From a virus: DNA of 64,000 nt. Below are positions 849 through 63,381 of the stretch, one piece after another; position 1 is the stretch's first letter; the number at the start of each line of letters is the position of its first letter. Under the pieces are notes generated by a model. That model worked only from the letters and a program-made list of their open reading frames with translations, ran no database searches and had not been told where the DNA came from. The DNA lies in the IMG/VR virus record IMGVR_UViG_3300033156_000775, positions 43,030 through 107,029 of that record, one strand, 5' to 3'. Position numbers and translations under genes: made by a program.

Positions 849-3800
849 ATGATTGAACTGATACGAAAGCATCTTTCTAGTTTCTTAAGACCAATTGTAG
901 AGGAGATTATAACTGAGGGGATTCAAATTGGTACACATACGATTTATTTAAGACCAACCTACATTGACATGCAAAATAATGCTTTAAAGAAAATTGGAAC
1001 CTTGACTTTTGGTACTGGTGAAGATACTAATCTTTACAGGTCAGGAGTAGATACACTGAAAACAGATGATACCTTCGAGGTAGCTGGAACAATCAAGACT
1101 GATATTATTCAGAACTATTCATCTGGTGATATTCTCCTCAAGGCGTTAACATCAGCAGATCTTAGAGTCCAGAATATGGGAGTAGTACTAGATAACATAG
1201 TGTCTATTGGATGGTATAACAATGCGGGTACCAAGATAGAACGTATTATTAGTTTGGATGAATACGACTCATTTGTTATCAGAGGAGGATCTCCTGGAAT
1301 CAGTGACAACTCTGTTAGATATGTTTCATTTGACATGTTAGGGAACACTACCTGGAACCAAATATGGCGTATTTGGGATGAGACTCCAGCTGATACAGAT
1401 TATTCAGATCCAGGAGCTAGTAGTGACTTACCTAGTGCTGGAGCTTCTTATGCAACTGACATAGTTAATATCTATAGAGATTATAAGAGAGAAGGAGGAG
1501 ACTTCTCTACATACATTAAGCTGTTTCCAGCTAAAGCAGAGTCTAAGACATCAGCTCAGATAAGAAAGTCCCCTCTATTGGTATTTATATCTAGATACTG
1601 GGATGGATATCAGAGTCAAGATGCAGAAGCTAAGATGCAATTTGAAGTAACGACTACTAGCCCATTAGCTGCTAATTTCTATTTGTCTCTATTAGGTACT
1701 ACTGTTCTAAACATCAATTCAGCTGGTAATCTTACTCCTGGAACTCCTGATTCACAGGATATGGGTAATGATGCCAGTAGATGGAGAGACCTATATCTGT
1801 CTAGAACTCTGGATATTGAATTAGATAGTTCCATAGGTGACGGAGATGACTATATAAGAGTAAAACGTAATGACTTAGCTTCTGATGAGCCTGTGTTCTG
1901 GTTACATGAAGAGCAGAAGTCTGGAGGAGGAACTACTGATCAGATAACTCATCTACAGGTAAGAGGTCCGTTACATGCCTATGTAGCTAAGGATGTATCA
2001 GCTGATAGCTTCTTTACTCCGTATATAGATTTAGCTGATGTTAATTGGTCATGGGCTTTGGGACTAGGTGCTAGTGGTAATACAAGTGGAGATACTACAT
2101 GGCTATATTTCTCATGGGTATATGGTACTGGTAGCTATCAAGAAATAGCTAGGATAGATAATGCTGGTTTTCTACAGATACGGAGTGGTATAACGACTCT
2201 GTTAGGAGGAACTACTTATGTTCCTACAGATCAAGTGCCATTGTATATAGCAGTTCAGTCTTCTCATGCAGCTAATTTAGCTGAATTCTGGACTGGTAGT
2301 AACAAAGTCTTCTATGTAGCTAACGATGGTAATCCTACGATAAATCATGCATCATCTCCATCTTTGATAATGCAAGTAGGTGGGACTGATAAATTTAGAC
2401 TAACATTTAATGGTACAGATACGCTTCTAGATGCTGTGACTGGAAATATCTATGCTAATGCAAACTTACTCCCTTATGGTTCTTATAGCTTAGGTTCTTT
2501 ATCTAGTAAATGGCTTAACGCCTTTCTCAGCGGATACGCTGACATAGGATCTCTAAGAATAAGTGGAACCGAGGTTTTAACAAGTGGAAGAGTTCTTCAG
2601 AACGTTTCTGCTGATGCTGGAATAATTACAAGTGGACTTTTTAATGTAGCAAGGATACCTGACCTAGATGCTTCAAAGATAGTTTCAGGAGTCTTCGATG
2701 TTGATAGAATTCCAAATTTAGATGCTTCTAAGATTACTTCAGGGGTTTTTGACCTAGTTAGGATTCCTTCTATCGACTGGACAAGGATGCCTTTCGATGA
2801 TTGGAATGAATTGCTGGCACAATTAGGCAATACTGTCGGAGACTACTTGAGCCTAAGCTATCTTCAGATAAACGGTTCAACTGTTTTAACCAGCGGTAGA
2901 GTATTACAGAATATCGCTTCAATAGCTCAGAGTTTACTTTCAGATGGGGATAATACGAGAGATTTGGGCAGTTTAAGCTATAGATGGCGAAATCTCTACA
3001 TCGGAACAGATATTTACTTAGGTGGTGATATTCGTGGAGATGGTCAAAATGCTATTATTGATCAAGTAGATGGTTCAAATGCCTACTTCCACTTTAGAAG
3101 CTATACTGGTTCTGGTAGCTACGTTAATGCAGCTTACTTAAATGCTGGAAAATTTGTCATAGCTGCTTCAGGAAACATACTTCCAGCTTCAACCCGAACA
3201 CATAATATTGGGACTCCAGACTTGAGATACTATGATCTGTTTCTAGGTCATTCACTAAACATAGAGCTCACAGGATCGATAGGAAATGGTAACAACTACA
3301 TATCTGTAATAAGATCAGACTTAGCAGCTGATGAACCAGTATTCTGGTTACATGAAGAATCCATAGAAGCTGGATCTACAGACCAAATCACTCACTTACA
3401 AGTAAGAGGACCAGTTCACGCATATATCAACAAGGATGTTAGTGTCAATATTAGCTACACTCCGTATATAGATGTAGCAGATGCTAACTGGAGCTGGACA
3501 GCTGGTCTAGGAGCTTCAGGTCCATCATCTTCAGATGATACATGGTTGTACTTTAGCTGGGTATACGGTACTGGATCATACACTGAAGTAGCTAGATTCG
3601 ATAAAGATGGATTCTTACAAGTAAAGAGTGGAATAACAACAGTACTTGGTGGTTCAGTAAGTGTACCAACTAGTGTAGTCCCATTGGATATAGAAGTTCA
3701 ATCCAGTCATGCAGCTGATATCATGAAAGTAGTTAGAGGAACAAGTACAGTTTTTGAAATAGGTCAGTATGGTCATATAATAATGAACACTACGAGTACT

Positions 3801-7811: not shown

Positions 7812-7961
7812 TGCCCGGACTACACTTCAGCATCTCCACCCCCTTCCTTTACGATACACCAAACATTCCAACCCCAATAGAAACTAAACACCATTCATAT
7901 AATAAGAAGAGAAGGGAGAGAATTCTATTCGTTTAAAAAAAAAGATATGGAGATCCTAAGG

Positions 7962-8375
7962 TTATTCCTTTTCCCTCCATACATGGATATAGCCGATTAG
8001 CTGAGGGTATTCATATAGATCGTTATCGTCAAGCTCTATATCTTCAATGAAGAACTTATCGTTATCCTTAATGTCCTTAGGCATCAATGCCTTTAATGCT
8101 TCTCTAATGTTATCGTCAGTTAATAGATCAGCTATCTGGTCTTTATCCTGAAGGGTCAAGCTATCATCAAGCCACTCTATAGGACTCATGCAGTTGTTTA
8201 TGTCCTCAATGATCAAATCGATAATGTCCCTAACTGTTTCTCTATAGGTCACTGAGACACCGAACCTTATGCATGCAACCACATTAGGATCTACAAAGCT
8301 ATGCCCATGGCCACTGTAGAAGTCAGCATATCCCACATAATCGATAACTGCCTCCAAGCTATATCTTCCTCCCAT
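7962..8375 (-). CDS. Acidic hypothetical protein
   Basis: ORF with GGAGGTGG SD; T-run terminator downstream (A-run at about 7934-7943 on +). Confidence 0.6.
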   Translation of the reverse strand: MGGRYSLEAVIDYVGYADFYSGHGHSFVDPNVVACIRFGVSVTYRETVRDIIDLIIEDINNCMSPIEWLDDSLTLQDKDQIADLLTDDNIREALKALMPKDIKDNDKFFIEDIELDDNDLYEYPQLIGYIHVWREKE

Positions 8376-8482
8376 ATTTCCACCTCCTTATACATTTTAT
8401 ATGAGCCTGTCTACCACCCTTAAGGTTTACACTATCATCAAAATGTGTAGGCTTCCCACAAATCACACACCTAGCCAATCCC

Positions 8483-9223
8483 CTAATCCTCCTTTATGGT
8501 TGATTCTAAGATGAGCTTCTCATGCTGAAGCTCATCTATAACTCTAAGGATCAGCTTAGGGTTATGGTTATAATACACTTCACAGACACCTTTAATCAGC
8601 TCTAGAACTTCAGAATTATCCAAGCTCATTATTAGATCTAAATTGCAGTACACCCATTTTTTAATGTTCACAAATGTCTGTTCAGCTCTAGTGTTATATG
8701 GTCTTTTCTGGTTTTTAGGATATACGACTAGAGTTATTCCTATCCTCTCAAGGGCCTTAGCAACCTTCATTAAAACCCTATCTGAACGTAGATACTTGAT
8801 ATTTTCCCCAGCATCTAGAGCTTTTTGAACCAAGAATAACACTTTAAAGCTATTTTCAACTCTACCGATCCATAAATGATACACTACCCGATTAGTCTTA
8901 ATGTTTCTAATTGTGCCTAAAATTATGCCCTTTAAGACTTTTCTAGAATGATGTTTATCAGCTATCGAACCGTTAGTTATCGGTCTGGTGAAGTCTAAGA
9001 CATGAGTTATTTTCTCAATAGGGACATGATCATTCAGCTTCTGTTTCTGATGTGGATTATGCTTATCAAAGTCTCTTTTAGCTTCATAAGATTCAGCTTT
9101 AAGCAACCAATTCTTAATTGTCTGATGTGACACATTGTAACACTTAGCTATAGCCGTTAATCCAAAGTTGAGCTCATGAAGCATTTTTATCTCATTGATC
9201 TTTTCCATTTTTCCAACCCTCAT
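8483..9223 (-). CDS. HTH + DDE integrase/transposase-core (rve-like) protein
   Basis: N-terminal HTH (IAKCYNVSHQTIKNWL); VLDFT...LRSD...PYNTRAEQTFVNIKK fits D-D-E spacing. Confidence 0.6.
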   Translation of the reverse strand: MRVGKMEKINEIKMLHELNFGLTAIAKCYNVSHQTIKNWLLKAESYEAKRDFDKHNPHQKQKLNDHVPIEKITHVLDFTRPITNGSIADKHHSRKVLKGIILGTIRNIKTNRVVYHLWIGRVENSFKVLFLVQKALDAGENIKYLRSDRVLMKVAKALERIGITLVVYPKNQKRPYNTRAEQTFVNIKKWVYCNLDLIMSLDNSEVLELIKGVCEVYYNHNPKLILRVIDELQHEKLILESTIKED

Positions 9224-14164: not shown

Positions 14165-14422
14165 ATGTCTGATGAAGGAAACGTTTGGACCACTCCAGAG
14201 CCTAAGGTGCCTCCTACCATACAGGTAGGGGACAAAGAATTCAAGGTTGAGCTAGAGAGTGACTTTGTGTCCACTATACTTGGGATCGTAAGATCCCTAG
14301 GTATAGGTAGGTTCCTAGTGAAGTACAATGGCTCAGTGATCACACCAGCTGAAGCACCAGACACATTCGAGGACTATGCTGGAAAAACAATCGTAATAGA
14401 GCCAGTTGATGAAGCTGGATAA
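14165..14422 (+). CDS. Ubiquitin-like (beta-grasp) protein
   Basis: 85 aa ending IVIEPVDEAG (C-terminal Gly); first gene of E2-E1-JAB operon. Confidence 0.7.
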   Translation: MSDEGNVWTTPEPKVPPTIQVGDKEFKVELESDFVSTILGIVRSLGIGRFLVKYNGSVITPAEAPDTFEDYAGKTIVIEPVDEAG

Positions 14423-14454
14423 GAGCTTCTACACACTGGCTCACTTTTTTTTTC

Positions 14455-15606
14455 ATGGAGGATGTTTATATGAGGCTTGTTTTCAAGAAGGATGGTGAAA
14501 GGCCTCCCAACTTCTATATTGAAATTTCCTATGAAGAGAAAGACCTGATTAACAATTATATCTATGAGAGTGGAGTTTACTATATCAGTGACAAGATCTA
14601 CCTGACCAATGCCACTGTGGCTAGAGCTCTAGGTCTCTCATCCAGATATTTGGACTATCATCCATTTATGAGTAGTTTTACTTCTAGGGAGCTCTTAAGT
14701 GCAGCCAAGATAGACATTGAAGATCCTGATGAAAGACAAAAGCTCATCTCTTCAGTGTACAAATACCTGAAAAACAGGCTTGAGATAGCCATGTCCAAGA
14801 CTGTTAGGGATGAACGTTCTATTCCCCTAGACATATCTCCATCCCTAGGAGAAATGAATGTAAGCCTAGAGGAAGTAGGAAAGATAGGGACACCTTTCCT
14901 CATCTCTATCGGGGACAAGGTGTTTGAGGCTAAGCTAGTAAAGGAGATTGACAGCTTCAGAGACTACATGCAGAGAAGGCTGAAGCAGATAGTGGGGGCA
15001 TATAGAAACCACATTACAGCTACTCTCAGTGCCCTACGTGACGAGTATGATAGGAAACTAGAGGAAATAGAAAAAACCAGGGAAACAATGATCCCAATGC
15101 CTAACATCACTCTTAGTGACTTAGCTACTGGCATGAGAATATGTAGGAACAACCAGTACCTAGAGGTTTATCTGCCAGTGAAGGTAGAGATCAAAAGAGT
15201 CTTTTACAACAAGAAATCTTTTACATTGAAAAAGGAGTACTGGTGTACTCTCAGAGGACTAGCTGGACTAGCACTGGATCGTGATCTTACAATAGTGTCA
15301 ACCAAGTTTGTGAGGTCTAAGAGGGCAAGTAGGGGAGTTAGGCATCCTAACGTGAATGATGATGGAATGGTGTGTCTTGGCTATACTAGACAGATCCTAG
15401 GTAGGAGGCTAAACGACATACATGATGCTTACACATGGATATATTCAGTGGTTGATTTGCTGTCCGTACCTAACTTCGATGATGCATACGATGTCCATGT
15501 TTCACAATGGGCTAGGGAGGTCTTTGATGCTCTGGAAAGTGGCCACTCAAGTGAGGTAGTAGAGGAAGTGGCTACTCTTCCTTCAGAAGTAGTGTGGAGG
15601 ACATAA
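14455..15606 (+). CDS. E2/UBC-like conjugating enzyme with N-terminal coiled coil
   Basis: HPNVNDDGMVCLG matches the E2 HPN...GxxCL catalytic motif. Confidence 0.75.
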   Translation: MEDVYMRLVFKKDGERPPNFYIEISYEEKDLINNYIYESGVYYISDKIYLTNATVARALGLSSRYLDYHPFMSSFTSRELLSAAKIDIEDPDERQKLISSVYKYLKNRLEIAMSKTVRDERSIPLDISPSLGEMNVSLEEVGKIGTPFLISIGDKVFEAKLVKEIDSFRDYMQRRLKQIVGAYRNHITATLSALRDEYDRKLEEIEKTRETMIPMPNITLSDLATGMRICRNNQYLEVYLPVKVEIKRVFYNKKSFTLKKEYWCTLRGLAGLALDRDLTIVSTKFVRSKRASRGVRHPNVNDDGMVCLGYTRQILGRRLNDIHDAYTWIYSVVDLLSVPNFDDAYDVHVSQWAREVFDALESGHSSEVVEEVATLPSEVVWRT

Positions 15607-15609
15607 CTA

Positions 15610-16248
15610 TTGTACGCTAGGCAGTCTAGTTTAAATCTCCATATTCCAAGTGACATTGGGATCATCGGGTGTGGAGGCATAGGCTCATGGGTAGCCATCT
15701 ACTCTGCTATGGGAGGAGTAAGGACAATCAGCTTGTTTGACCCTGACATCCTAGAGATCCATAACCTGAATAGACTTCCATATCCTGAGAGTGCTGTGGG
15801 CATGAAGAAAGTAGATGTCCTTAGAGAATACCTAGTCCACATTAGGCCTCAGAGTGAGGTATTTGCCTACGATAGACGTATTTCAAGGGACAATGCAACC
15901 CTACTTCACAAGTGTAAAATAGTCTTTGACTGTACAGATAGCACCAGAGCCCATAGGTTGATAGAGGGCTTATGGGTCAAGAAGAGCTTTACTGATCTGA
16001 TTAGAGCCTCATATGATGGTGACCATTACACCTTGTCCAAGAACCTTCGTTTAGAGAGCATGTCTTGGGGAAATGAAACCTCTGGGTACCAGATTGTCCC
16101 CAGCTGGGTCATCCCAGCATCGTTCATAGCCCAGATTGCATGTTGGTTGGCATATGCTGAGGATGCCCCTGAAAGATACTTTCTTTCTAACAGTTTAAGG
16201 AATACTGTTAACCGTTTCATTTATGGAGGTAAGACCACAATTGACTAG
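15610..16248 (+). CDS. ThiF/E1-like adenylyltransferase
   Basis: GIIGCGGIGS, DPDILEIHNLNR, KVDVL, DCTDS. Confidence 0.92.
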   Translation: MYARQSSLNLHIPSDIGIIGCGGIGSWVAIYSAMGGVRTISLFDPDILEIHNLNRLPYPESAVGMKKVDVLREYLVHIRPQSEVFAYDRRISRDNATLLHKCKIVFDCTDSTRAHRLIEGLWVKKSFTDLIRASYDGDHYTLSKNLRLESMSWGNETSGYQIVPSWVIPASFIAQIACWLAYAEDAPERYFLSNSLRNTVNRFIYGGKTTID

Positions 16249-16350
16249 AAGGAGGAGAAAAAAGAAGAGGAAAGCTACAGAGGAAACAGGTGGCATACTA
16301 GTAGTAGTGGATGATAGGGATAGGAGCAGTGAATTGTCATACCATATCCG

Positions 16351-16878
16351 TTGATTGCCAGGATCTCCAGCCTAGTTTCTAGACTTCATACTGAGTGGCT
16401 AGGTTACTTGGACTATGAACAGGTTGAGGACAATGGTAGACTTGTGTACAGAGCTACAGAGATTACTATCCCAGATCAGGAGGTCACATACTCATCGGTA
16501 AACGTTAACGATCCTGCTATAGGGATAGGTAAAGGAGTCATCCACTGTCATCCCTGGAAGGGATATTCATCTCATTCTAACACTGATGAGGACTACGTTG
16601 ATAGGAATCATCCCTTCAGCATAGTTGTAAACAAGGACTTGGACTTCTCTGTAAAAGCTGTAGTAGACGTCCCATGTGGGTCTAGGATACTAGTAGATGG
16701 GGAAGTAGAAATTGAATATCCAGATGTGGATACCAAGTCCTTCCTAGAGGAGGCTAAGAGCAAAATCAAGGAGAAGAAGTATGTCTACAGATACTCTGCA
16801 TCTAGGAAAAAGTCATCAGGGATAACTGCTATGGAGTATGGGTACCTAGATCCATACTCATATTCCTGGATGCCGTAG
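16351..16878 (+). CDS. JAB/MPN metallopeptidase (start uncertain)
   Basis: EWLGYL...HCHP-x6-HSNTD JAMM motif. Confidence 0.85.
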   Translation: MIARISSLVSRLHTEWLGYLDYEQVEDNGRLVYRATEITIPDQEVTYSSVNVNDPAIGIGKGVIHCHPWKGYSSHSNTDEDYVDRNHPFSIVVNKDLDFSVKAVVDVPCGSRILVDGEVEIEYPDVDTKSFLEEAKSKIKEKKYVYRYSASRKKSSGITAMEYGYLDPYSYSWMP

Positions 16879-17032
16879 TCCGGTCTACATCTAGAGAATG
16901 ATAGACTATGCCTCTAGCTCTTCTAATCATATCGTTAGTTGTATGGATAGTTGACTTTATACGTAGACCTAATCTATGGGAGCATTTACCCCTATCTGAG
17001 CGTTACAGACAGAAGTTTATACGGGACTGTCC

Positions 17033-17576: not shown

Positions 17577-18812
17577 ATGGAAAGCTCTATGGAATGGATA
17601 CCATCTGAAATACTGTCATCAATTAGAGAGGAGCTCAAGGGAGCTAGAAGTATCCAGGATATCAGGAGTATTGTAGTCCAAGCTACAAGATGTAAGCCTG
17701 GTGACATTAAAGATTTCCATTACAAGCTTGGAGGACATGACTGGAAAGGGGTGATCTATACTAAACGGAACACTCTTATGGGATCAGTATTCTCACTGTT
17801 TGACAGTAAACCCTTTGTAGTTAGAGGCTATCCTAAGATCAGATATGCATTAGATTCTAAACTCTTAGGAAAGGAAGTAACTGTACAGATGAAGTATGAC
17901 GGGACTAACATTGGACTTTTCCTCCTACCTAATGGAGAGATCATGGGAAAGACTAGGCTGATGCCTAGATGGGATGTCCAGTCTTTACAGGCTATGAAGA
18001 GACAGGTTTCTCATTGGAAAGAGCTCTTTACGAAGATAGATGATGGCTATCTCCTTAAGCAAGTCAAGTATCTAGCTGAAGATGACTACATGATATTTGG
18101 AGAGCTCTATGGATATCTAAATCCTGGAGAATTCATTAAATATTCAATTCCAATAGCCTTCAAAGCTTTCGATATAGTTGACACTAGGACACTAAAGTTT
18201 CTTAGCTCTAAAGACATGGAGGATCTATGCTATGAGCTGGACATTCCATATGTAGAGGAGCTATGGCATGGTATCCTAACTAGGAAAGAGGTTGAACGAA
18301 TAGAGTACGAAGCTAAACAGTATGTAAGAGAGGATGGCTATGAGGGATTTGTAGCTAAGCATTTCTCCCCTATAGATAACGACATGCACTTCTGCAAGCT
18401 TAAATGTGAAGAGATAAAGGAGAAAGCCTGGAAGCTTAGACCTACTGGAATCCCAATTTCTATTATTCGTAAAGCCATACGAAAGGCTATGGAAAGCTAC
18501 CCATACTATGACAAAGTAGATCAGCTATATCCAGTAGTTAGAGAGGAGCTCCTAGAAGAAGTAGAGCCCTCATTGGTAGATGAATCAGAGAACAAGATAA
18601 GATCTGTTATTAGAAGAGTACTGTCTCCTACACCTGAGGAGCTAAAGAAGTCCATAAGGGAAATTATGCTTGAGCTTAGGGAGAGAGGTATGGACTTGAA
18701 CAAGAAGGGAGAAGTGCTCCCAGCTCTAGCTCATCGTCTAGGAGACATATCAGGAAAAATGCTTTACAGACTTTACACTCAAGTCTTATTTGAGATGGAA
18801 AGTGAAGTGTAG
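17577..18812 (+). CDS. ATP-dependent RNA ligase, Rnl3 (Pab1020/MthRnl)-like
   Basis: VRGYPKI, motif I KYDGTN, III FGELYG, IIIa FDI, IV EGFVAK, V KLK; no OB domain. Confidence 0.85.
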   Translation: MESSMEWIPSEILSSIREELKGARSIQDIRSIVVQATRCKPGDIKDFHYKLGGHDWKGVIYTKRNTLMGSVFSLFDSKPFVVRGYPKIRYALDSKLLGKEVTVQMKYDGTNIGLFLLPNGEIMGKTRLMPRWDVQSLQAMKRQVSHWKELFTKIDDGYLLKQVKYLAEDDYMIFGELYGYLNPGEFIKYSIPIAFKAFDIVDTRTLKFLSSKDMEDLCYELDIPYVEELWHGILTRKEVERIEYEAKQYVREDGYEGFVAKHFSPIDNDMHFCKLKCEEIKEKAWKLRPTGIPISIIRKAIRKAMESYPYYDKVDQLYPVVREELLEEVEPSLVDESENKIRSVIRRVLSPTPEELKKSIREIMLELRERGMDLNKKGEVLPALAHRLGDISGKMLYRLYTQVLFEMESEV

Positions 18813-30049: not shown

Positions 30050-30565
30050 GTGTCCGTAATAAGAACTGTCAAGGAAGAGCCATGTTCTCAGTGTGGTAGA
30101 CTAACAAACGCATACGATATGCTGATGGGTAGGCTATGTCCAGAATGTATAGCTAAACGAGCTATTACTTTTGCTAGGAACATTAGGAATCTATATGGAA
30201 TCGATGAGCCTGAAGAGTTAGACCCTTATTATTACAAATTAGCTACTTTGCCCCTGATAGATCATAGCAATGACATTGATGCTCATTTACATTCCATAAC
30301 AAACTATAGAGATCCTAAGAGGATACCAATAATCCTTAAGCGTTTAGAGAATATCTGGAGAAGGTTTCCAGACCTTAGACTAGGACAGCTTATAGAAAAT
30401 GTCTTCCCTAACAGAGGGATAGCTGGACATAGTGAATCAGCATATTATCTGGAAGATGAAGAGTTTATTGAACGAATAGAGAAATTTTATAGCAATATAA
30501 AGTCTGAAAAAGAGATAGACCATACCAAGCTAATAAGAGATGAAGAGAATGTCCAAAATAGATAG
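30050..30565 (+). CDS. Zn-finger plus conserved phage domain
   Basis: CxxC...CxxC; RDPKRI...WRRFPDLRLGQLI. Confidence 0.6.
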   Translation: MSVIRTVKEEPCSQCGRLTNAYDMLMGRLCPECIAKRAITFARNIRNLYGIDEPEELDPYYYKLATLPLIDHSNDIDAHLHSITNYRDPKRIPIILKRLENIWRRFPDLRLGQLIENVFPNRGIAGHSESAYYLEDEEFIERIEKFYSNIKSEKEIDHTKLIRDEENVQNR

Positions 30566-31211
30566 GCAATTCCTACATGAGTTTCTTTACAGAGGAAAAG
30601 AGCTAGAATCCCTAGAAGATAAACAAGTTACGCTGTGTGGGTGTGGAGCTCTAGGGACTTGGACAGCTGTGTTCCTAGCTAGGAGTGGACTTAGACATTT
30701 CAGGCTGATAGATATGGATAAGGTTGAGATACACAACACTTCTACTCAAGCATTCTTCCTAGAGAACCTTAACCAATACAAGGCTACTGCTCTGTCCAGA
30801 ATCCTCTACAGAATCAACAGAGCTAGATCCTCAATCTACAATGAGGAGCTAACAGCTGACAATGTGTCCCTAGCTTTCGATGACACAGACTTGGTTATTT
30901 GTACATTTGACAACTATAAATCTAGAAAGCTGGTTAGGGACAAGGCCCTAGAGCTAGACTTTCCAACAGTGTTTGCAGGTATGAATGGAAGCCTAAACTA
31001 TGGGGAGGTAGCTTGGGCTGAGGATTACAATCCTCCTAGAGATCCTAAATCTAGAGATATAGACCCATGCAATTATCCATTAGCAACAACTTTAGTGGTG
31101 TTGACTTCAGCTGTACTAGCTGAGGTCTCTCTAAACTATCTCCTTAAAGGATTCAAGTTCTATAAGCCATTTGGCTTTTCATTTAGCTCTTTCCAGGTAA
31201 TTTCAAAATAA
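30549..31211 (+). CDS. Second ThiF/E1-like adenylyltransferase
   Basis: CGCGALG, IDMDKVEIHN, KA, TFDNY, DPCNYP (candidate catalytic Cys). Confidence 0.9.
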   Translation: MSKIDRQFLHEFLYRGKELESLEDKQVTLCGCGALGTWTAVFLARSGLRHFRLIDMDKVEIHNTSTQAFFLENLNQYKATALSRILYRINRARSSIYNEELTADNVSLAFDDTDLVICTFDNYKSRKLVRDKALELDFPTVFAGMNGSLNYGEVAWAEDYNPPRDPKSRDIDPCNYPLATTLVVLTSAVLAEVSLNYLLKGFKFYKPFGFSFSSFQVISK

Positions 31212-51593: not shown

Positions 51594-52652
51594 ATGGAAG
51601 TGAAGGATATATTAAGTGATCTTATCACTGAAGTTACATTGTACTTTGGAGAGCCCTGGAGATACAAGAACACTGAGGGAGTTATCCTCCCAATAATAGC
51701 TAGGGCTTCATGGGAAAGGAACTATGTCCTACTTTCGGAGGTACAGGACCAGGTTAAGATAACTGACACTGGAAGCATCAGTAAGCTAAATGTAGAGAAC
51801 AGCTCTGACAAGAATGTCCTCATTAGAACTGGAGAAATGTTAAAAGGGGCTTCAACTCAGCCAAGGACATTCCAGCGTTCAGCTGTCATAGCTCCTAACA
51901 AGAAGAGCCTCATAGACGTAAGATGTATTCAAGCTTCACACCCAATATTGCCTAGTAGCAGATTCACAGCTACTGGATGGTATACTCCTAAAGAGGTCAA
52001 TGAAGTCCTACTGTCTTCTTATTATACTCATAATAGGCAGGGTGCTGTATGGCAATGCATCAACAGTATCAGCACTACATATCATGCATTAGTGTCAGCA
52101 TCAAGTCCAGAGCTAGCTACTTCTCTTAGCTACACAGATTCTCTGATAGATGCTCAGAGGACTTTGGAGTCTGGACTCAAAGTGCTAAGTGAAATGATTA
52201 GCCATGTCCCCATACATTCCAAGCAGGTAGGAGCTGTATTCTTCAAGGGAAACAAACTACTAGGGCTAGAGATGTTTGACAGTCCAGATTCATGGAATGC
52301 TTCGTATGAAGCTGCTATCAAGAAGTATGGTTACAACCTAACAAGCCCAGTGGATGAGTCAGTGCTAGATGTCAAAGTTAGAGCTGAAGTTGTAAAGAAG
52401 AAGGCTAAGGAGTTCATTAGGAAAATCATTGAATCCAAGATACATGACAAGGTAGAAACTGGGCTCTATGAGTCCGCAATATTGGAGAGCAAGGATATAG
52501 TTGGTGAATATGTAAGGATGGACGACAGAGTAATCTATTTAGTGGCATTAGCAAAGGATCCTAGCCAAAAGCCTCCTAGCACCAGGACTTTTCCATCAAC
52601 ACAGACAATTACGTTTCCTGATGTGACATTCACAGGCTGGAGTGTGGAATGA
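51594..52652 (+). CDS. ARPP-1/DUF6569-like protein
   Basis: GEMLKGA..Q.R...IDVRCIQ; QGAVW; QVGA...LGLEMFDSP. Confidence 0.7.
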   Translation: MEVKDILSDLITEVTLYFGEPWRYKNTEGVILPIIARASWERNYVLLSEVQDQVKITDTGSISKLNVENSSDKNVLIRTGEMLKGASTQPRTFQRSAVIAPNKKSLIDVRCIQASHPILPSSRFTATGWYTPKEVNEVLLSSYYTHNRQGAVWQCINSISTTYHALVSASSPELATSLSYTDSLIDAQRTLESGLKVLSEMISHVPIHSKQVGAVFFKGNKLLGLEMFDSPDSWNASYEAAIKKYGYNLTSPVDESVLDVKVRAEVVKKKAKEFIRKIIESKIHDKVETGLYESAILESKDIVGEYVRMDDRVIYLVALAKDPSQKPPSTRTFPSTQTITFPDVTFTGWSVE

Positions 52653-60498: not shown

Positions 60499-60866
60499 TG
60501 CCTAAAATAGTTATTCTAGGATCATGCAAGTATGAGCCATATGAGATAATGTTTGTACCTAAGAAAGTATCTGAAGAGCTGTATAATACTGAGGAAGGAT
60601 ACAGGATAGCCTCTAAAAAGTGCTACACAGCTATTGATGAAGCTGATGAAGTCTGGGTATATATTCCTGAAGGAATGGGAGAGCATACAACCAGGGACTT
60701 TGAATATGCACTTTCAAAGAACAAGAAAATATTTCTAGTAGTTGACTTTGAAAAGTTCAAGATATGGCAAAATATAGTCCTGAAGCTCAAGGAGCTTTTA
60801 ACCAGAATGTGGATTGAAATTATTAAGGAACTAGAGAAGATAGGACGGTATGAACTTGGACTATGA
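60498..60866 (+). CDS. Nucleoside-deoxyribosyltransferase-like (DUF4406-like) protein
   Basis: IDEADEVWVY..G.GEHT...EYA....K.I. Confidence 0.55.
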   Translation: MPKIVILGSCKYEPYEIMFVPKKVSEELYNTEEGYRIASKKCYTAIDEADEVWVYIPEGMGEHTTRDFEYALSKNKKIFLVVDFEKFKIWQNIVLKLKELLTRMWIEIIKELEKIGRYELGL

Positions 60867-63381
60867 GAAGTGGACGAACAAGATCTACTTAGGAGATGCA
60901 TTGTCAGTACTCAAGAAGCTACCTAGCAACCTAGTGAATTGTATAGTCACTTCTCCTCCATACTACAGACTTAGAGACTATCAGGTGGAGGGACAAATAG
61001 GGCTGGAGGACACTCCTCAGGAATACATTGAGAGGCTAGTAGATGTCTTTAGGGAAGCTAGGAGAGTTCTTAGGGACGATGGGGCCCTATGGTTGAACCT
61101 AGGGGACACTTACTATTCTGGTAAGGGAGAGATCTATTCTGGTAGAAGCTCAGATGACTACACTAAAGCTGTGTCCCATAGCTGGAGACCTAAAGTCTTT
61201 AGCAACTGGCTTAGACATAAGCAACTGTTACTGATCCCTCCTAGAGTAGCCATAGCTATGCAGGAGGATGGATGGCTCCTTAGGAATGTTGTTGTCTGGG
61301 AGAAGACAAATCCAATGCCCTCTTGTTTATCTGAGGATACAGAGATTTACATTCGAGAGAACAATCAAGTCAAAGTTCTTACTTTAGGAGCACTTTATGC
61401 TAGTGGTATAGAAGGGAAGGAAATATTAACACCTCATGGCTGGAAAAGAATCAGGAAAATATGGAAAGTGAAAAAAGAAAAATACTTACAATTCAGGTTT
61501 GGTTCTTCCAGTGAGGTTAAATGTTCTTTAGATCACCGATTTCCTGTTAGTCATGACAATAGAAGGAAAAATTATGAAGTCAAGAAAGCAAAAGACTTCA
61601 GGGACGACCCTCACAGAATGCTAGATAGGTTGCTTTTTGTTCCAATAGGGAAATTTCTAGAAGGTAACATAAAAGAGATATATGGAGTGAAGTTGGACTA
61701 TGAGCTAGGCAGGTTCCTTGGTCTAATAGTAGCTGAGGGCGGTTTTAATGCTCCACGAGGCCATCAATGTAAAATTACTCTTTCAAGAGAAGAAAAAGAG
61801 ACCCTTAGCTTCTTTACGAATGTTCTAAAAGAAAGATTTAACCAGTATTTTAGCATCTATGAAATGGACAACTATGTGAGTTGCCTATTTAGTTCTCTGT
61901 TAATTAGAAAGCTCTATGAAAAAGTCTGTAAAGGTAAGTGTAAAGAAAAAGAGCTTAACTTGAATTTTATTCTGAATACACCTCTTGAGTTTAGACAAGG
62001 TCTGTTCGATGGAATTATTGAAGGAGATGGGCATTATGATGAAAATGGAAGGATTAGCTATGGGACAGCTTCCGAAGCTCTGAGGAACCATGTTTATCTC
62101 TTAGCAAGTTCGATAGGCTTACTTGCTTCTAGACATCCTCCCATAAAACGACTTGATAAAAGAACTCAGAAGGTATATACTTTATATCCCCTAACAATTC
62201 CACTTTCTCTTCAAAGGGAAGTTATCAAAGGTGAAATGGTAAAGATGGGCTATTATAATCGAAAACTCCAGAAATATATCCCTTCAAAATATCGTAATGA
62301 GTTCTATGCCAAAACGCTGAAAATTACAAATATTAAAGTTGAGAAGACAGAGTGTGAATTAATAGATTTAGAAGTGGAAGGTGGTCTATTCCTGATTAAT
62401 GGTGGACTAGTTACTCATAACTCGGTAAAGGACCGTTTAAGCTGTACTTGGGAGTATATGTTCTTCTTTGTTAAGAATGAAAAGTATTATTTCGACTTAG
62501 ATGCTATCAGGGTTCCACATAAATCTAAGATAAGACAATATGGGATACGTCCAAAACAGAAGGCTAGTCCAGACTCGGTTGTTGGTGGTCCACATCGTCT
62601 CACTAGGGAATATCATCCTCTAGGGAAGAATCCAGGAGACACATGGAGCTCTAGTGAGCTAGAGGAAAAATTCACTCAGGGAATTCTGTTAGTTAGAGAA
62701 GCAATGGAACAGAGTGATCGAACATACAAAACCAAGTATACTGGAACAGGGATGGAAGGCAAACACTTTGCTTCGAGAGAAGGTAGAATAGCTAAAAGCA
62801 GAGAAGTGGCTAAAGCAGTGGCTAAACAGATATTCCCTGATAGTCCAGCATTGCAGAGACAATTCATCAAGTTCTACCATAATTTTGTTGGGCATCCATT
62901 TGGAAAGAATCCAGGGGACATATGGAAGCTACCAACAGCTAGCTTCAAGGAAGCCCATTTCGCCGTATTCCCTAGTGATCTAGTTAAGAGACCAATATTG
63001 GCAACTTGTCCACGGTGGATATGTAAAAAATGTGACAGGCCTAGAGAACGTGTAGTTAAGATAGAGAAGCTAGAGCCTGAAGATGACTCTACCAGGAAGA
63101 AGAGAGGAAGATCACAGGCTAAAATGGCTGTGATGAGGGAAGCCCCAAGCAAGGGATGGCTATCTATCCACAGGACTGTTGGATGGACAGACTGTGGATG
63201 TAATGTGGGATGGAGGAAGGGAATAGTGCTAGATCCATTCTGTGGGTCTGGAACTACATTGTATGTAGCTCAGCAGCTAGGAAGGTCCTGGATAGGTATA
63301 GACATTAAGCCTGAATATGTAGAGATGAGTAAGCGTAGGATAAGTAAGATATATGCAGATGACCTGTCCAGGTGGATATAA
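60850..63381 (+). CDS. Beta-class N4/N6 DNA methyltransferase with intein
   Basis: TSPPYY, RVLRDDG, W.K.NPMP, HFAVFP, VLDPFCGSGTT. Confidence 0.93.
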   Translation: MNLDYEKWTNKIYLGDALSVLKKLPSNLVNCIVTSPPYYRLRDYQVEGQIGLEDTPQEYIERLVDVFREARRVLRDDGALWLNLGDTYYSGKGEIYSGRSSDDYTKAVSHSWRPKVFSNWLRHKQLLLIPPRVAIAMQEDGWLLRNVVVWEKTNPMPSCLSEDTEIYIRENNQVKVLTLGALYASGIEGKEILTPHGWKRIRKIWKVKKEKYLQFRFGSSSEVKCSLDHRFPVSHDNRRKNYEVKKAKDFRDDPHRMLDRLLFVPIGKFLEGNIKEIYGVKLDYELGRFLGLIVAEGGFNAPRGHQCKITLSREEKETLSFFTNVLKERFNQYFSIYEMDNYVSCLFSSLLIRKLYEKVCKGKCKEKELNLNFILNTPLEFRQGLFDGIIEGDGHYDENGRISYGTASEALRNHVYLLASSIGLLASRHPPIKRLDKRTQKVYTLYPLTIPLSLQREVIKGEMVKMGYYNRKLQKYIPSKYRNEFYAKTLKITNIKVEKTECELIDLEVEGGLFLINGGLVTHNSVKDRLSCTWEYMFFFVKNEKYYFDLDAIRVPHKSKIRQYGIRPKQKASPDSVVGGPHRLTREYHPLGKNPGDTWSSSELEEKFTQGILLVREAMEQSDRTYKTKYTGTGMEGKHFASREGRIAKSREVAKAVAKQIFPDSPALQRQFIKFYHNFVGHPFGKNPGDIWKLPTASFKEAHFAVFPSDLVKRPILATCPRWICKKCDRPRERVVKIEKLEPEDDSTRKKRGRSQAKMAVMREAPSKGWLSIHRTVGWTDCGCNVGWRKGIVLDPFCGSGTTLYVAQQLGRSWIGIDIKPEYVEMSKRRISKIYADDLSRWI
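61324..62421 (+). mobile_element. Intein with LAGLIDADG endonuclease (366 aa)
   Basis: NPMPS|CLSEDTEI ... LGLIVAEG, GIIEGDG ... VTHN|SVKDR. Confidence 0.93.

Follow-up and report, generated by a model that had tools for sequence, protein, structure and literature searches.

The 64,000-nucleotide stretch of viral DNA analyzed here (the window; bases 43030–107029 of IMG/VR record IMGVR_UViG_3300033156_000775) carries at 14165–16878 four tightly spaced plus-strand open reading frames (ORFs) for, in this order, a ubiquitin-like modifier (Ubl), an E2-like protein, a ThiF-type E1 and a JAB peptidase. We read these 2.7 kb, with a probability of about 0.68, as a virus-owned ubiquitin-like protein-conjugation cassette that operates without an E3. 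The intergenic distances are 32 nt between Ubl and E2 and 3 nt between E2 and E1, followed by an overlap, and the genes therefore form one operon-like unit. A first-pass annotation, made from the nucleotide sequence alone, had proposed four contiguous genes at these positions, and the ORFs bear this out. Prokaryotic Ubl conjugation has been characterized experimentally as host antiviral defence (Bil, the CBASS (cyclic-oligonucleotide-based antiphage signalling system) protein Cap2, and probably Bub); here, the machinery is owned by the virus. Full-text literature searches found no published description of a virus-encoded Ubl-E2-E1-JAB cassette, and its recurrence on other contigs suggests that viruses use protein tagging in a way that has yet to be explored.

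The modifier is an 85-aa protein that consists of a disordered N-terminal tail of ~17 residues, containing the peptide NVWTT, followed by a compact domain. Its C-terminus reads ...IVIEPVDEAG directly before the stop codon, which confirms the predicted Gly-terminated small protein, the end being a single Gly after Ala and not Gly-Gly. These last ten residues are invariant in six orthologues, and the gene is the sole copy in the virus genome. An AlphaFold2 (AF2) model based on a 6-sequence alignment has a predicted local distance difference test (pLDDT) score of 86.5 and displays the strand-strand-helix-strand-strand order of a β-grasp. The first-pass annotation had made its proposal depend on a β-grasp fold for the ORF 14165..14422, and the proposal survives this prediction. 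The PDB matches listed by Foldseek are all ubiquitin, SUMO, NEDD8 or other Ubl-type domains (probability 1.00; template-modelling score ~0.55–0.6), with Caldiarchaeum ubiquitin among them and no ThiS or MoaD chain; in the BFVD viral structure library the matches are mostly Ub/SUMO-like domains. The predicted fold and the flexible tail ending in Gly would thus be those of a ubiquitin-like β-grasp modifier. Modifiers of more distant cassette versions terminate in ...DVAG, ...DEAG-L, ...DQAG plus 24 residues, or ...DQA. Where residues extend beyond Ala-Gly, as in loci L010, L011 and L014, C-terminal trimming would be needed, which is consistent with a processing role for the JAB peptidase.

The 212-aa E1 contains the ThiF/E1 adenylation domain (PF00899), which is matched with 94.9 bits against a gathering cut-off of 28.1 (E=5.6e-27). 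The profile of the E1 family matches E. coli ThiF at E=3.2e-20, followed by TcdA, MoeB, MccB, Uba4, SUMO E1, UBA5 and Cap2. In an alignment of nine cassette E1s, with identity down to 26%, the invariant columns are SRQ, G20-C-G-G-x-G25, N52, R55, K67, D107-x-T-D110, Y135, W153 and G159-Y160. Nucleotide-binding, Arg and Mg-binding Asp residues are all among them, and the adenylation site is hence complete, in support of the ThiF protein named in the first-pass annotation. By its spacing from the Mg-binding Asp, we take the stretch that leads from the end of the strand at Y135 to the PSW helix to be the crossover loop, in which ThiF, MoeB and UBA5 carry a cysteine; none of the nine aligned cassette E1s has a Cys in it. 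With 212 residues there is also no room for an inserted Cys domain, and the protein thus has neither of the cysteines, crossover or inserted-domain, that define canonical thioester-forming E1s. The E1s of Bub systems likewise lack a crossover cysteine, and the sole invariant residue of their loop is a tyrosine that is required for conjugation (PMC11601596, Corbett laboratory). We infer that Tyr160 of the cassette E1 parallels this Bub tyrosine (Y370).

A second, divergent ThiF/E1 gene is found at 30540–31211 of the window. It encodes 223 aa, is 21% identical to the cassette E1, and carries a Cys in the crossover segment within the motif DPCNY; no cassette-type Ubl, E2 or JAB lies beside it.

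The 383-aa product of the second gene is very probably an E2, judging from its motifs and from profile matches. Its C-terminal UBC-like domain contains H297-P298-N299, C307, the stretch LLSVPNFDDA and a terminal W381, and H297-P298-N299, C307 and LLS.PNFDD are invariant in nine orthologues. The UQ_con profile aligns residues 295–351 with its positions 70–123, i.e., the HPN-Cys-α2 region, at E=0.0038, which is below the cut-off. Four of the nine orthologues are matched at E<=1 (best E=3.6e-4), and in a six-frame scan of the whole virus the E2 gives the sole UQ_con signal (E=8.9e-5). These scores, 17.3–18.4 bits, lie under the gathering cut-off of 27 for PF00179, and it is by the HPN triad, the catalytic Cys and the α2 motif, which align with the motifs of UBE2C, that the protein resembles the UBC/E2 superfamily. 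Nearly all matches from a phmmer search of the PDB were E2 enzymes aligned at HPN/Cys; the profile of nine orthologues performed worse against the PDB than the single sequence. Across ten diverse cassette E2s, C307, G309 and W381 are invariant. In the divergent versions that read HCN, HYH or FHS, a His ~10 residues before the invariant Cys-x-Gly persists and most of the rest has changed. That Cys307 and the upstream His are kept while nearly all else changes argues for catalytic residues and against a scaffold.

The AF2 model of the full-length E2 has low confidence (pLDDT 49). It places strands in 228–287, then a loop and helices at 319–336 and 351–368, and this order of strand meander, loop and three helices in all is compatible with a UBC fold, in so far as an unreliable model can be read. 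Foldseek found nothing for this model in the PDB at E<=0.001, the few Ubc13 and Cdc34 entries lying in the noise, and a wide VIA-align comparison matched only the long helix 164–214, to coiled-coil segments. The N-terminal region of ~215 aa belongs to no recognizable family; it contains a helix-turn-helix-like stretch, a conserved β-hairpin (SIGDKVFEAK) and a long helix, which the low-confidence model draws as ~45 residues (168–209) next to a second helix (91–120) and small α/β parts. The HPN...C motif noted in the first-pass annotation is invariant among the orthologues, and its long coiled-coil region reduces to one helix of ~45 residues among other elements. Translation of the E2 most likely starts at ATG 14470, with GGAGGA 8 nt upstream.

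E2 relatives are scarce. The search of 5.8 billion proteins returned only nine, and a wider profile search added one. None was found in IMG/VR with either the single protein or the profile, in GTDB genomes, in GenBank phages by tblastn, or among shorter proteins. In the ESM Atlas, the C-terminal part of the E2 falls with viral clusters that are partly labelled Prok-E2_D, which hidden Markov models did not confirm (one member at E=0.17, no match in the genome).

The fourth gene belongs to a large family, for which an exhaustive profile search yielded 780 representatives at E<=0.001, mostly viral in the ESM Atlas; tblastn found none in GenBank phages. Among 93 aligned members, E15, H65, H67, S76, D79 and C109 are invariant, 65 match Prok-JAB and five match JAB. 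The profile of these 93 also finds AMSH-like JAMM proteases (E=1.7e-6), and the positions of Glu, HxH and SxxD are in register. The ORF of the window and its five closest orthologues have no direct match in Pfam or in the PDB, and the identity of the protein therefore follows from the wider relatives that match Prok-JAB and from the family profile that matches AMSH. In its core the protein carries the E...HxH...S..D motif of JAMM/MPN+ peptidases.

The gene itself is broken in the window. Full-length orthologues of 228–237 aa are encoded in a single frame, with an N-terminal part that comprises a basic run, a Trp motif, a Cys conserved in at least 90% of the wide family, and the first strand. 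In a DNA alignment with L003 and L004, whose E2s are the most similar to that of the window (72% and 90% identity), 52 nt are missing from the window at ~16333/16334. This frameshifting deletion leaves a 43-aa fragment at 16223–16354 and a core for which TTG 16351 is the sole available start, so that the nearly invariant Cys and the first strand are missing. The core is accordingly not an intact full-length domain with a direct match to Prok-JAB (PF14464). A programmed -1 frameshift that would rejoin the two parts was considered and rejected: the 22-nt overlap 16333–16354 contains no slippery heptamer, and the relatives use one frame. Read through four stops, this JAB is the sole copy in the virus genome, and no second member of the family was found there. 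Conjugation would not be prevented by loss of the JAB, the modifier being Gly-terminated from the outset; what would be lost is trimming and reversal. As to the first-pass annotation, its JAMM peptidase holds as a family assignment, through Prok-JAB, AMSH and the E-HxH-SxxD residues, and gives way as an intact gene, what is left being a truncated remnant. Its description of the cassette as complete fails, on account of the disrupted JAB gene and of an E1 without the crossover-loop cysteine that a canonical cascade needs.

The arrangement is conserved far beyond chance. Seven metagenome contigs with E2 relatives repeat the four genes in unchanged order as far as their length permits, and a search seeded with the fourth protein retrieved the order Ubl-E2-E1-JAB from five IMG/VR viral contigs of 19–110 kb. 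A search seeded with the E1 added versions on contigs of metagenome-assembled genomes (MAGs) labelled Acholeplasmataceae, Zixibacteria, Woesearchaeota and Desulfurococcales. The gene order is thus kept in 12 loci retrieved via E2 or JAB and again in the MAG contigs L016, L017 and L019, and the cassette recurs across many uncultured viruses, apparently archaeal and bacterial ones alike. The spacer behind the modifier gene has a recurrent form as well. A run of T8–T10 follows the Ubl stop codon directly in the window, L003, L005–L008, L010 and L011, and in L012–L014 the corresponding position has a hairpin, behind which L012 has a T-rich run. The element resembles an attenuator and would, as such, let more modifier be made than enzymes, in accordance with the role of a substrate. 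The features of the cassette are compiled in Table 1.

Table 1. Coordinates of the Ubl-E2-E1-JAB cassette (window numbering)
Feature	Position	Strand	Description
Ubl	14165..14422	+	85-aa ORF; AF2-predicted β-grasp; Foldseek matches to Ubl domains
Ubl-E2 spacer	14423..14469	+	T9 run, then GGAGGA; possible attenuator/terminator
E2-like protein	14455..15606	+	383 aa (likely start 14470, 378 aa); HPN...C motif
Minimal E1	15610..16248	+	212 aa, TTG start; ThiF E=5.6e-27
Orphaned JAB N-terminal fragment	16223..16354	+	43-aa ORF with basic K/R run
JAMM/MPN+ peptidase core (JAB)	16351..16878	+	175 aa from TTG; E15, H65-x-H67, S76, D79

Two further observations concern the recurrent loci. The T8–T10 run marks the group that resembles archaeal viruses and may hint at which relatives infect archaea and which bacteria. 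In L017, which was binned with a MAG of Zixibacteria, the modifier (3–935) is a poly-Ubl with at least three β-grasp-like repeats and a long acidic linker between them; behind it come an E2-like protein of 460 aa, an E1 of 224 aa and a JAB of 347 aa.

For the conjugation cassette we propose the following route. The ThiF-type E1, probably as a homodimer, would adenylate the C-terminal Gly85 of the modifier, as is the chemistry of its family. A canonical E1 thioester is not open to the activated modifier, for lack of a cysteine in the crossover loop; its transfer to Cys307 of the E2 could proceed straight from the adenylate or via an oxyester at Tyr160, in the manner of Bub E1s. The HPN...Cys E2 would then hand the modifier to lysines of its targets, be they viral or host proteins, for the choice of which the virus-specific N-terminal region of the E2 is the only candidate. 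In relatives with an intact JAMM peptidase, this enzyme would trim modifier precursors, some of which have 1 to 24 residues after Ala-Gly, and would probably remove conjugates. In the window genome, with its Gly-ended modifier and disrupted JAB, conjugation, if active, would have no need of processing and would be poorly reversible. As hypothetical roles, the first-pass annotation had suggested that the cassette may tag host defence proteins, exclude competing viruses or reverse host conjugation, and that the N-terminal part of the E2 could substitute for an E3. A complex prediction for the E1 with E2 residues 215–383 scored 0.00, which counts neither way.

Several points weigh against the proposed cassette function. 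The assignment of the E2 combines a motif with sub-threshold matches (17–18 bits, cut-off 27), and the poor full-length model (pLDDT 49) has no significant fold match. The E1 is without the cysteine used by all canonical cascades, the proposed step from E1 to E2 is hypothetical, and the equation of Y160 with Bub Y370 is tentative. The modifiers of some distant relatives end ...DQA or ...DKSA, not in Gly, and the broken JAB gene could mean that the cassette is decaying in this genome.

There are three alternatives. The small protein could be a sulfur carrier, adenylated by the E1, thiocarboxylated, and donating sulfur as ThiS, MoaD, Urm1 and SAMP2 do; the sulfur could go to tRNA or other RNA or to DNA modification, with the JAB confined to maturation of the carrier, as in CysO-Mec+. 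The solved structures most closely related to the E1 (ThiF, TcdA, MoeB and Uba4) would fit this reading, as would the absence of a catalytic Cys, which such chemistry allows, the weak ThiS match of one distant modifier (L012, E=0.0026) and the RNA-repair genes adjoining the cassette (RNA ligase, Ro60/tRNA-like locus). However, an E2-like gene with the invariant Cys lies between modifier and E1 in every retrieved locus that covers the interval, except for the short contig L018; the modifier ends in Ala-Gly instead of Gly-Gly; and the Foldseek PDB matches listed for it are all Ubl-type, with no ThiS or MoaD. No PP-loop ATPase, rhodanese or cysteine desulfurase was found in the virus, although host enzymes could still act as donors. 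With an E2-like gene in place and no donor enzymes found in the virus, the locus does not have the make-up of a ThiS/MoaD pathway, and we consider sulfur transfer improbable.

Conjugation in Haloferax by SAMP requires the E1 only, and an E1 of the present cassette that ligates the modifier by itself, in SAMP/UbaA fashion, would leave the 383-aa protein as a non-catalytic adaptor, a substrate or a UEV-like scaffold. The sub-threshold family membership of that protein, the failure to obtain a confident fold for it, and an E1 without a Cys for thioester transfer all accord with such E2-independent conjugation; the invariance of Cys307 and the upstream His across very divergent versions speaks against it, and it appears unlikely. 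We likewise attach little weight to the idea that the cassette is a remnant in the window genome, in which disruption of the JAB was the first step of loss and the other genes are no longer used. The 52-nt deletion is indeed specific to this genome, being absent from L003 and L004, and the genome has no second JAB of the family. On the other hand, the genes for Ubl, E2 and E1 are undamaged, with all family-invariant residues retained, trimming of the modifier is unnecessary, and the deletion could be a minority variant or an assembly artefact. An E3-less conjugation cassette is thus the reading we retain. A more specific form of it is a widespread and hitherto undescribed mixed-chemistry family of viral cassettes, in which a Cys-less minimal E1 passes the modifier from the adenylate to a classical HPN/Cys E2, either without an intermediate or by way of an oxyester on Tyr160, the N-terminal domain of the E2 picks the targets, and the hosts in the present case are Asgard-type archaea; taken as a whole, this is a tentative proposal that we would sooner doubt than adopt.

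A short peptide of the form [W/F]-x-[S/T/D] is shared among the cassette proteins. It occurs in the N-terminal tail of the Ubl (NVWTT), at the extreme C-terminus of the E2 and in the N-terminal region of the JAB, with copies located at 14185–14196 and 15592–15603 of the window, at 3785–4468 of L003, and in L010–L019. Every E2 ends with it (VVWRT, SVWSS, KAWSV, DLWTT and others), and the JAB copies read EWVDD, VWSDD and others. In L016 and L017, the Trp is replaced by Phe jointly in the E2 and JAB copies. The 52-nt deletion of the window starts at the JAB copy. Among the other ORFs of the virus genome, a motif of the type [VILMAE]W[TSRDE][TS VD] is not enriched. The peptide could be a common docking motif that assembles Ubl, E2 and JAB on the E1, with the caveat that in several loci the Trp codon of the E2 overlaps the start codon of the E1 or its Shine-Dalgarno sequence.

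The source record comprises 107,029 bp with direct terminal repeats and is rated 100% complete, and nearly all genes of the virus lie on the plus strand. They include genes for a terminase large subunit, a family B DNA polymerase (PolB), NrdD, an ATP-dependent DNA ligase, an RNA ligase, an intein-bearing DNA methylase and an ARPP-1 protein. The complete 107-kb genome is that of a tailed virus, probably of archaea. Close relatives of NrdD were sought in genomes for host assignment, and none was found. By gene content, compared with the published description, the virus is similar to the Nidhogg viruses: both are tailed viruses with complete genomes of ~100 kb, and both have PolB, ATP-dependent DNA ligase, RNA ligase, Ro60/TROVE and more than one ThiF gene. 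Nidhogg viruses are tied by CRISPR spacers to Helarchaeota of the Guaymas Basin, and their three ThiF/E1-like genes led to the suggestion that they hijack the host ubiquitin system (Rambo et al., bioRxiv 10.1101/2021.07.29.454249). That preprint gives E1-like genes only and no viral Ubl, E2 or JAB (10.1101/2021.07.29.454249).

Around the cassette, the stop codon of the JAB gene lies within a near-perfect copy (16866–16890) of the genome-wide palindrome GTAGTCCGG.CTAC. A gene for RNA ligase (PF09414) is situated downstream of the cassette at 17577–18812, and L005, a relative with 40% identity, likewise has one downstream (7920–9146); the genes between cassette and RNA ligase differ between the window and L005, which has a SpoU-like gene and others. 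Elsewhere in the window, a DNA methylase gene (N6_N4_Mtase; 60850–63381) is split by an intein that carries a homing endonuclease domain of the LAGLIDADG type, and a virus-borne ARPP-1 (ARG and Rhodanese-Phosphatase-superfamily-associated) domain protein is encoded at 51594–52652 (E=1.9e-36).

With four genes in 2.7 kb, the system is small and can be tested directly by co-expression. Pfam misses three of the four cassette proteins, i.e., Ubl, E2 and JAB. If the mixed chemistry is true, a Cys-less E1 combined with a Cys E2 would stand mechanistically between two kinds of cascade, the all-thioester kind of eukaryotes and Bil and the all-oxyester kind of Bub, and viruses would be carriers of eukaryote-like E2 chemistry that manipulate host or viral proteins by tagging. 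If, furthermore, the host is an Asgard archaeon, a viral HPN E2 would bear on the spread of ubiquitin machinery before eukaryotes.

Among the known systems, Bil (BilA Ubl, BilB E2, BilC JAB and BilD E1; class 6d, Iyer et al. 2006, PMC1779556) has the same four component types as separate proteins, and it likewise has no E3, target choice being attributed to the E2 (PMC11601596, section 5). It is, however, a host-encoded antiphage defence with a different gene order, whereas the cassette is encoded by a virus; the E2s of class 6d lack the classical His before the Cys, in contrast to HPN...C here; and the E1 of the cassette, a single ThiF domain without catalytic Cys, is not of the Bil type. CBASS Cap2/Cap3 shares E1 adenylation chemistry and a JAB antagonist with the cassette. 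In Cap2, E2 and E1 are fused into one protein, which has the CD-NTase itself as the molecule that is conjugated and uses no free Ubl, whereas the cassette has separate E2 and E1 genes and a free Ubl, and the 'E1-E2' models of PADLOC match only the E1 core (up to E=2.3e-16), the E2-like protein matching none. Since the defining architectures of Bil and Cap2/Cap3 are not found in the cassette, the comparison with them drawn in the first-pass annotation stands as an analogy of function only.

The Bub systems (class 6E; BubA/B/CD/E; PMC11601596) are similar in their minimal, homodimer-type E1: its crossover loop is free of cysteine and bears, close to the C-terminal end, an invariant tyrosine, as is the case in the cassette E1. 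Their E2s, however, use a Ser/His pair with oxyester intermediates throughout, whereas the cassette E2 keeps an invariant Cys, and they contain JAB-E1 or E2-E1 fusions together with a DUF6527 serine protease, whereas the cassette is made up of four separate genes with no fifth one conserved. Pfam scans of the four cassette proteins revealed no further domain, and the cassette is thus neither a type I nor a type II Bub system.

The ubiquitin operon of Caldiarchaeum subterraneum and Asgard archaea (PMC3082918, PMC5654768) shares with the cassette the HPN...Cys signature of the E2 and its α2 PN.DD, a Ub-like modifier, a JAMM protease of the Rpn11 or AMSH kind and a likely archaeal setting. It differs in a small RING E3, an E1 with catalytic Cys and a Ub ending in Gly-Gly, as compared with a Cys-less E1 and an Ala-Gly modifier here, and its E2 has no counterpart to the additional N-terminal region of ~215 aa. 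A single RING model, zf-RING_2, had no match at E<=0.1 anywhere in the 107-kb genome. As judged from its residues, the active site of the cassette E2 is closest to this classical type of eukaryotes, Caldiarchaeum and Asgard archaea. The cassette would work like the E3-less prokaryotic Ubl cascades and is a member of none of them, be it Bil, Cap2/Cap3 or Bub; what sets it apart is the pairing of a Cys-less E1 with a classical Cys E2, and the ownership of the cassette by a virus.

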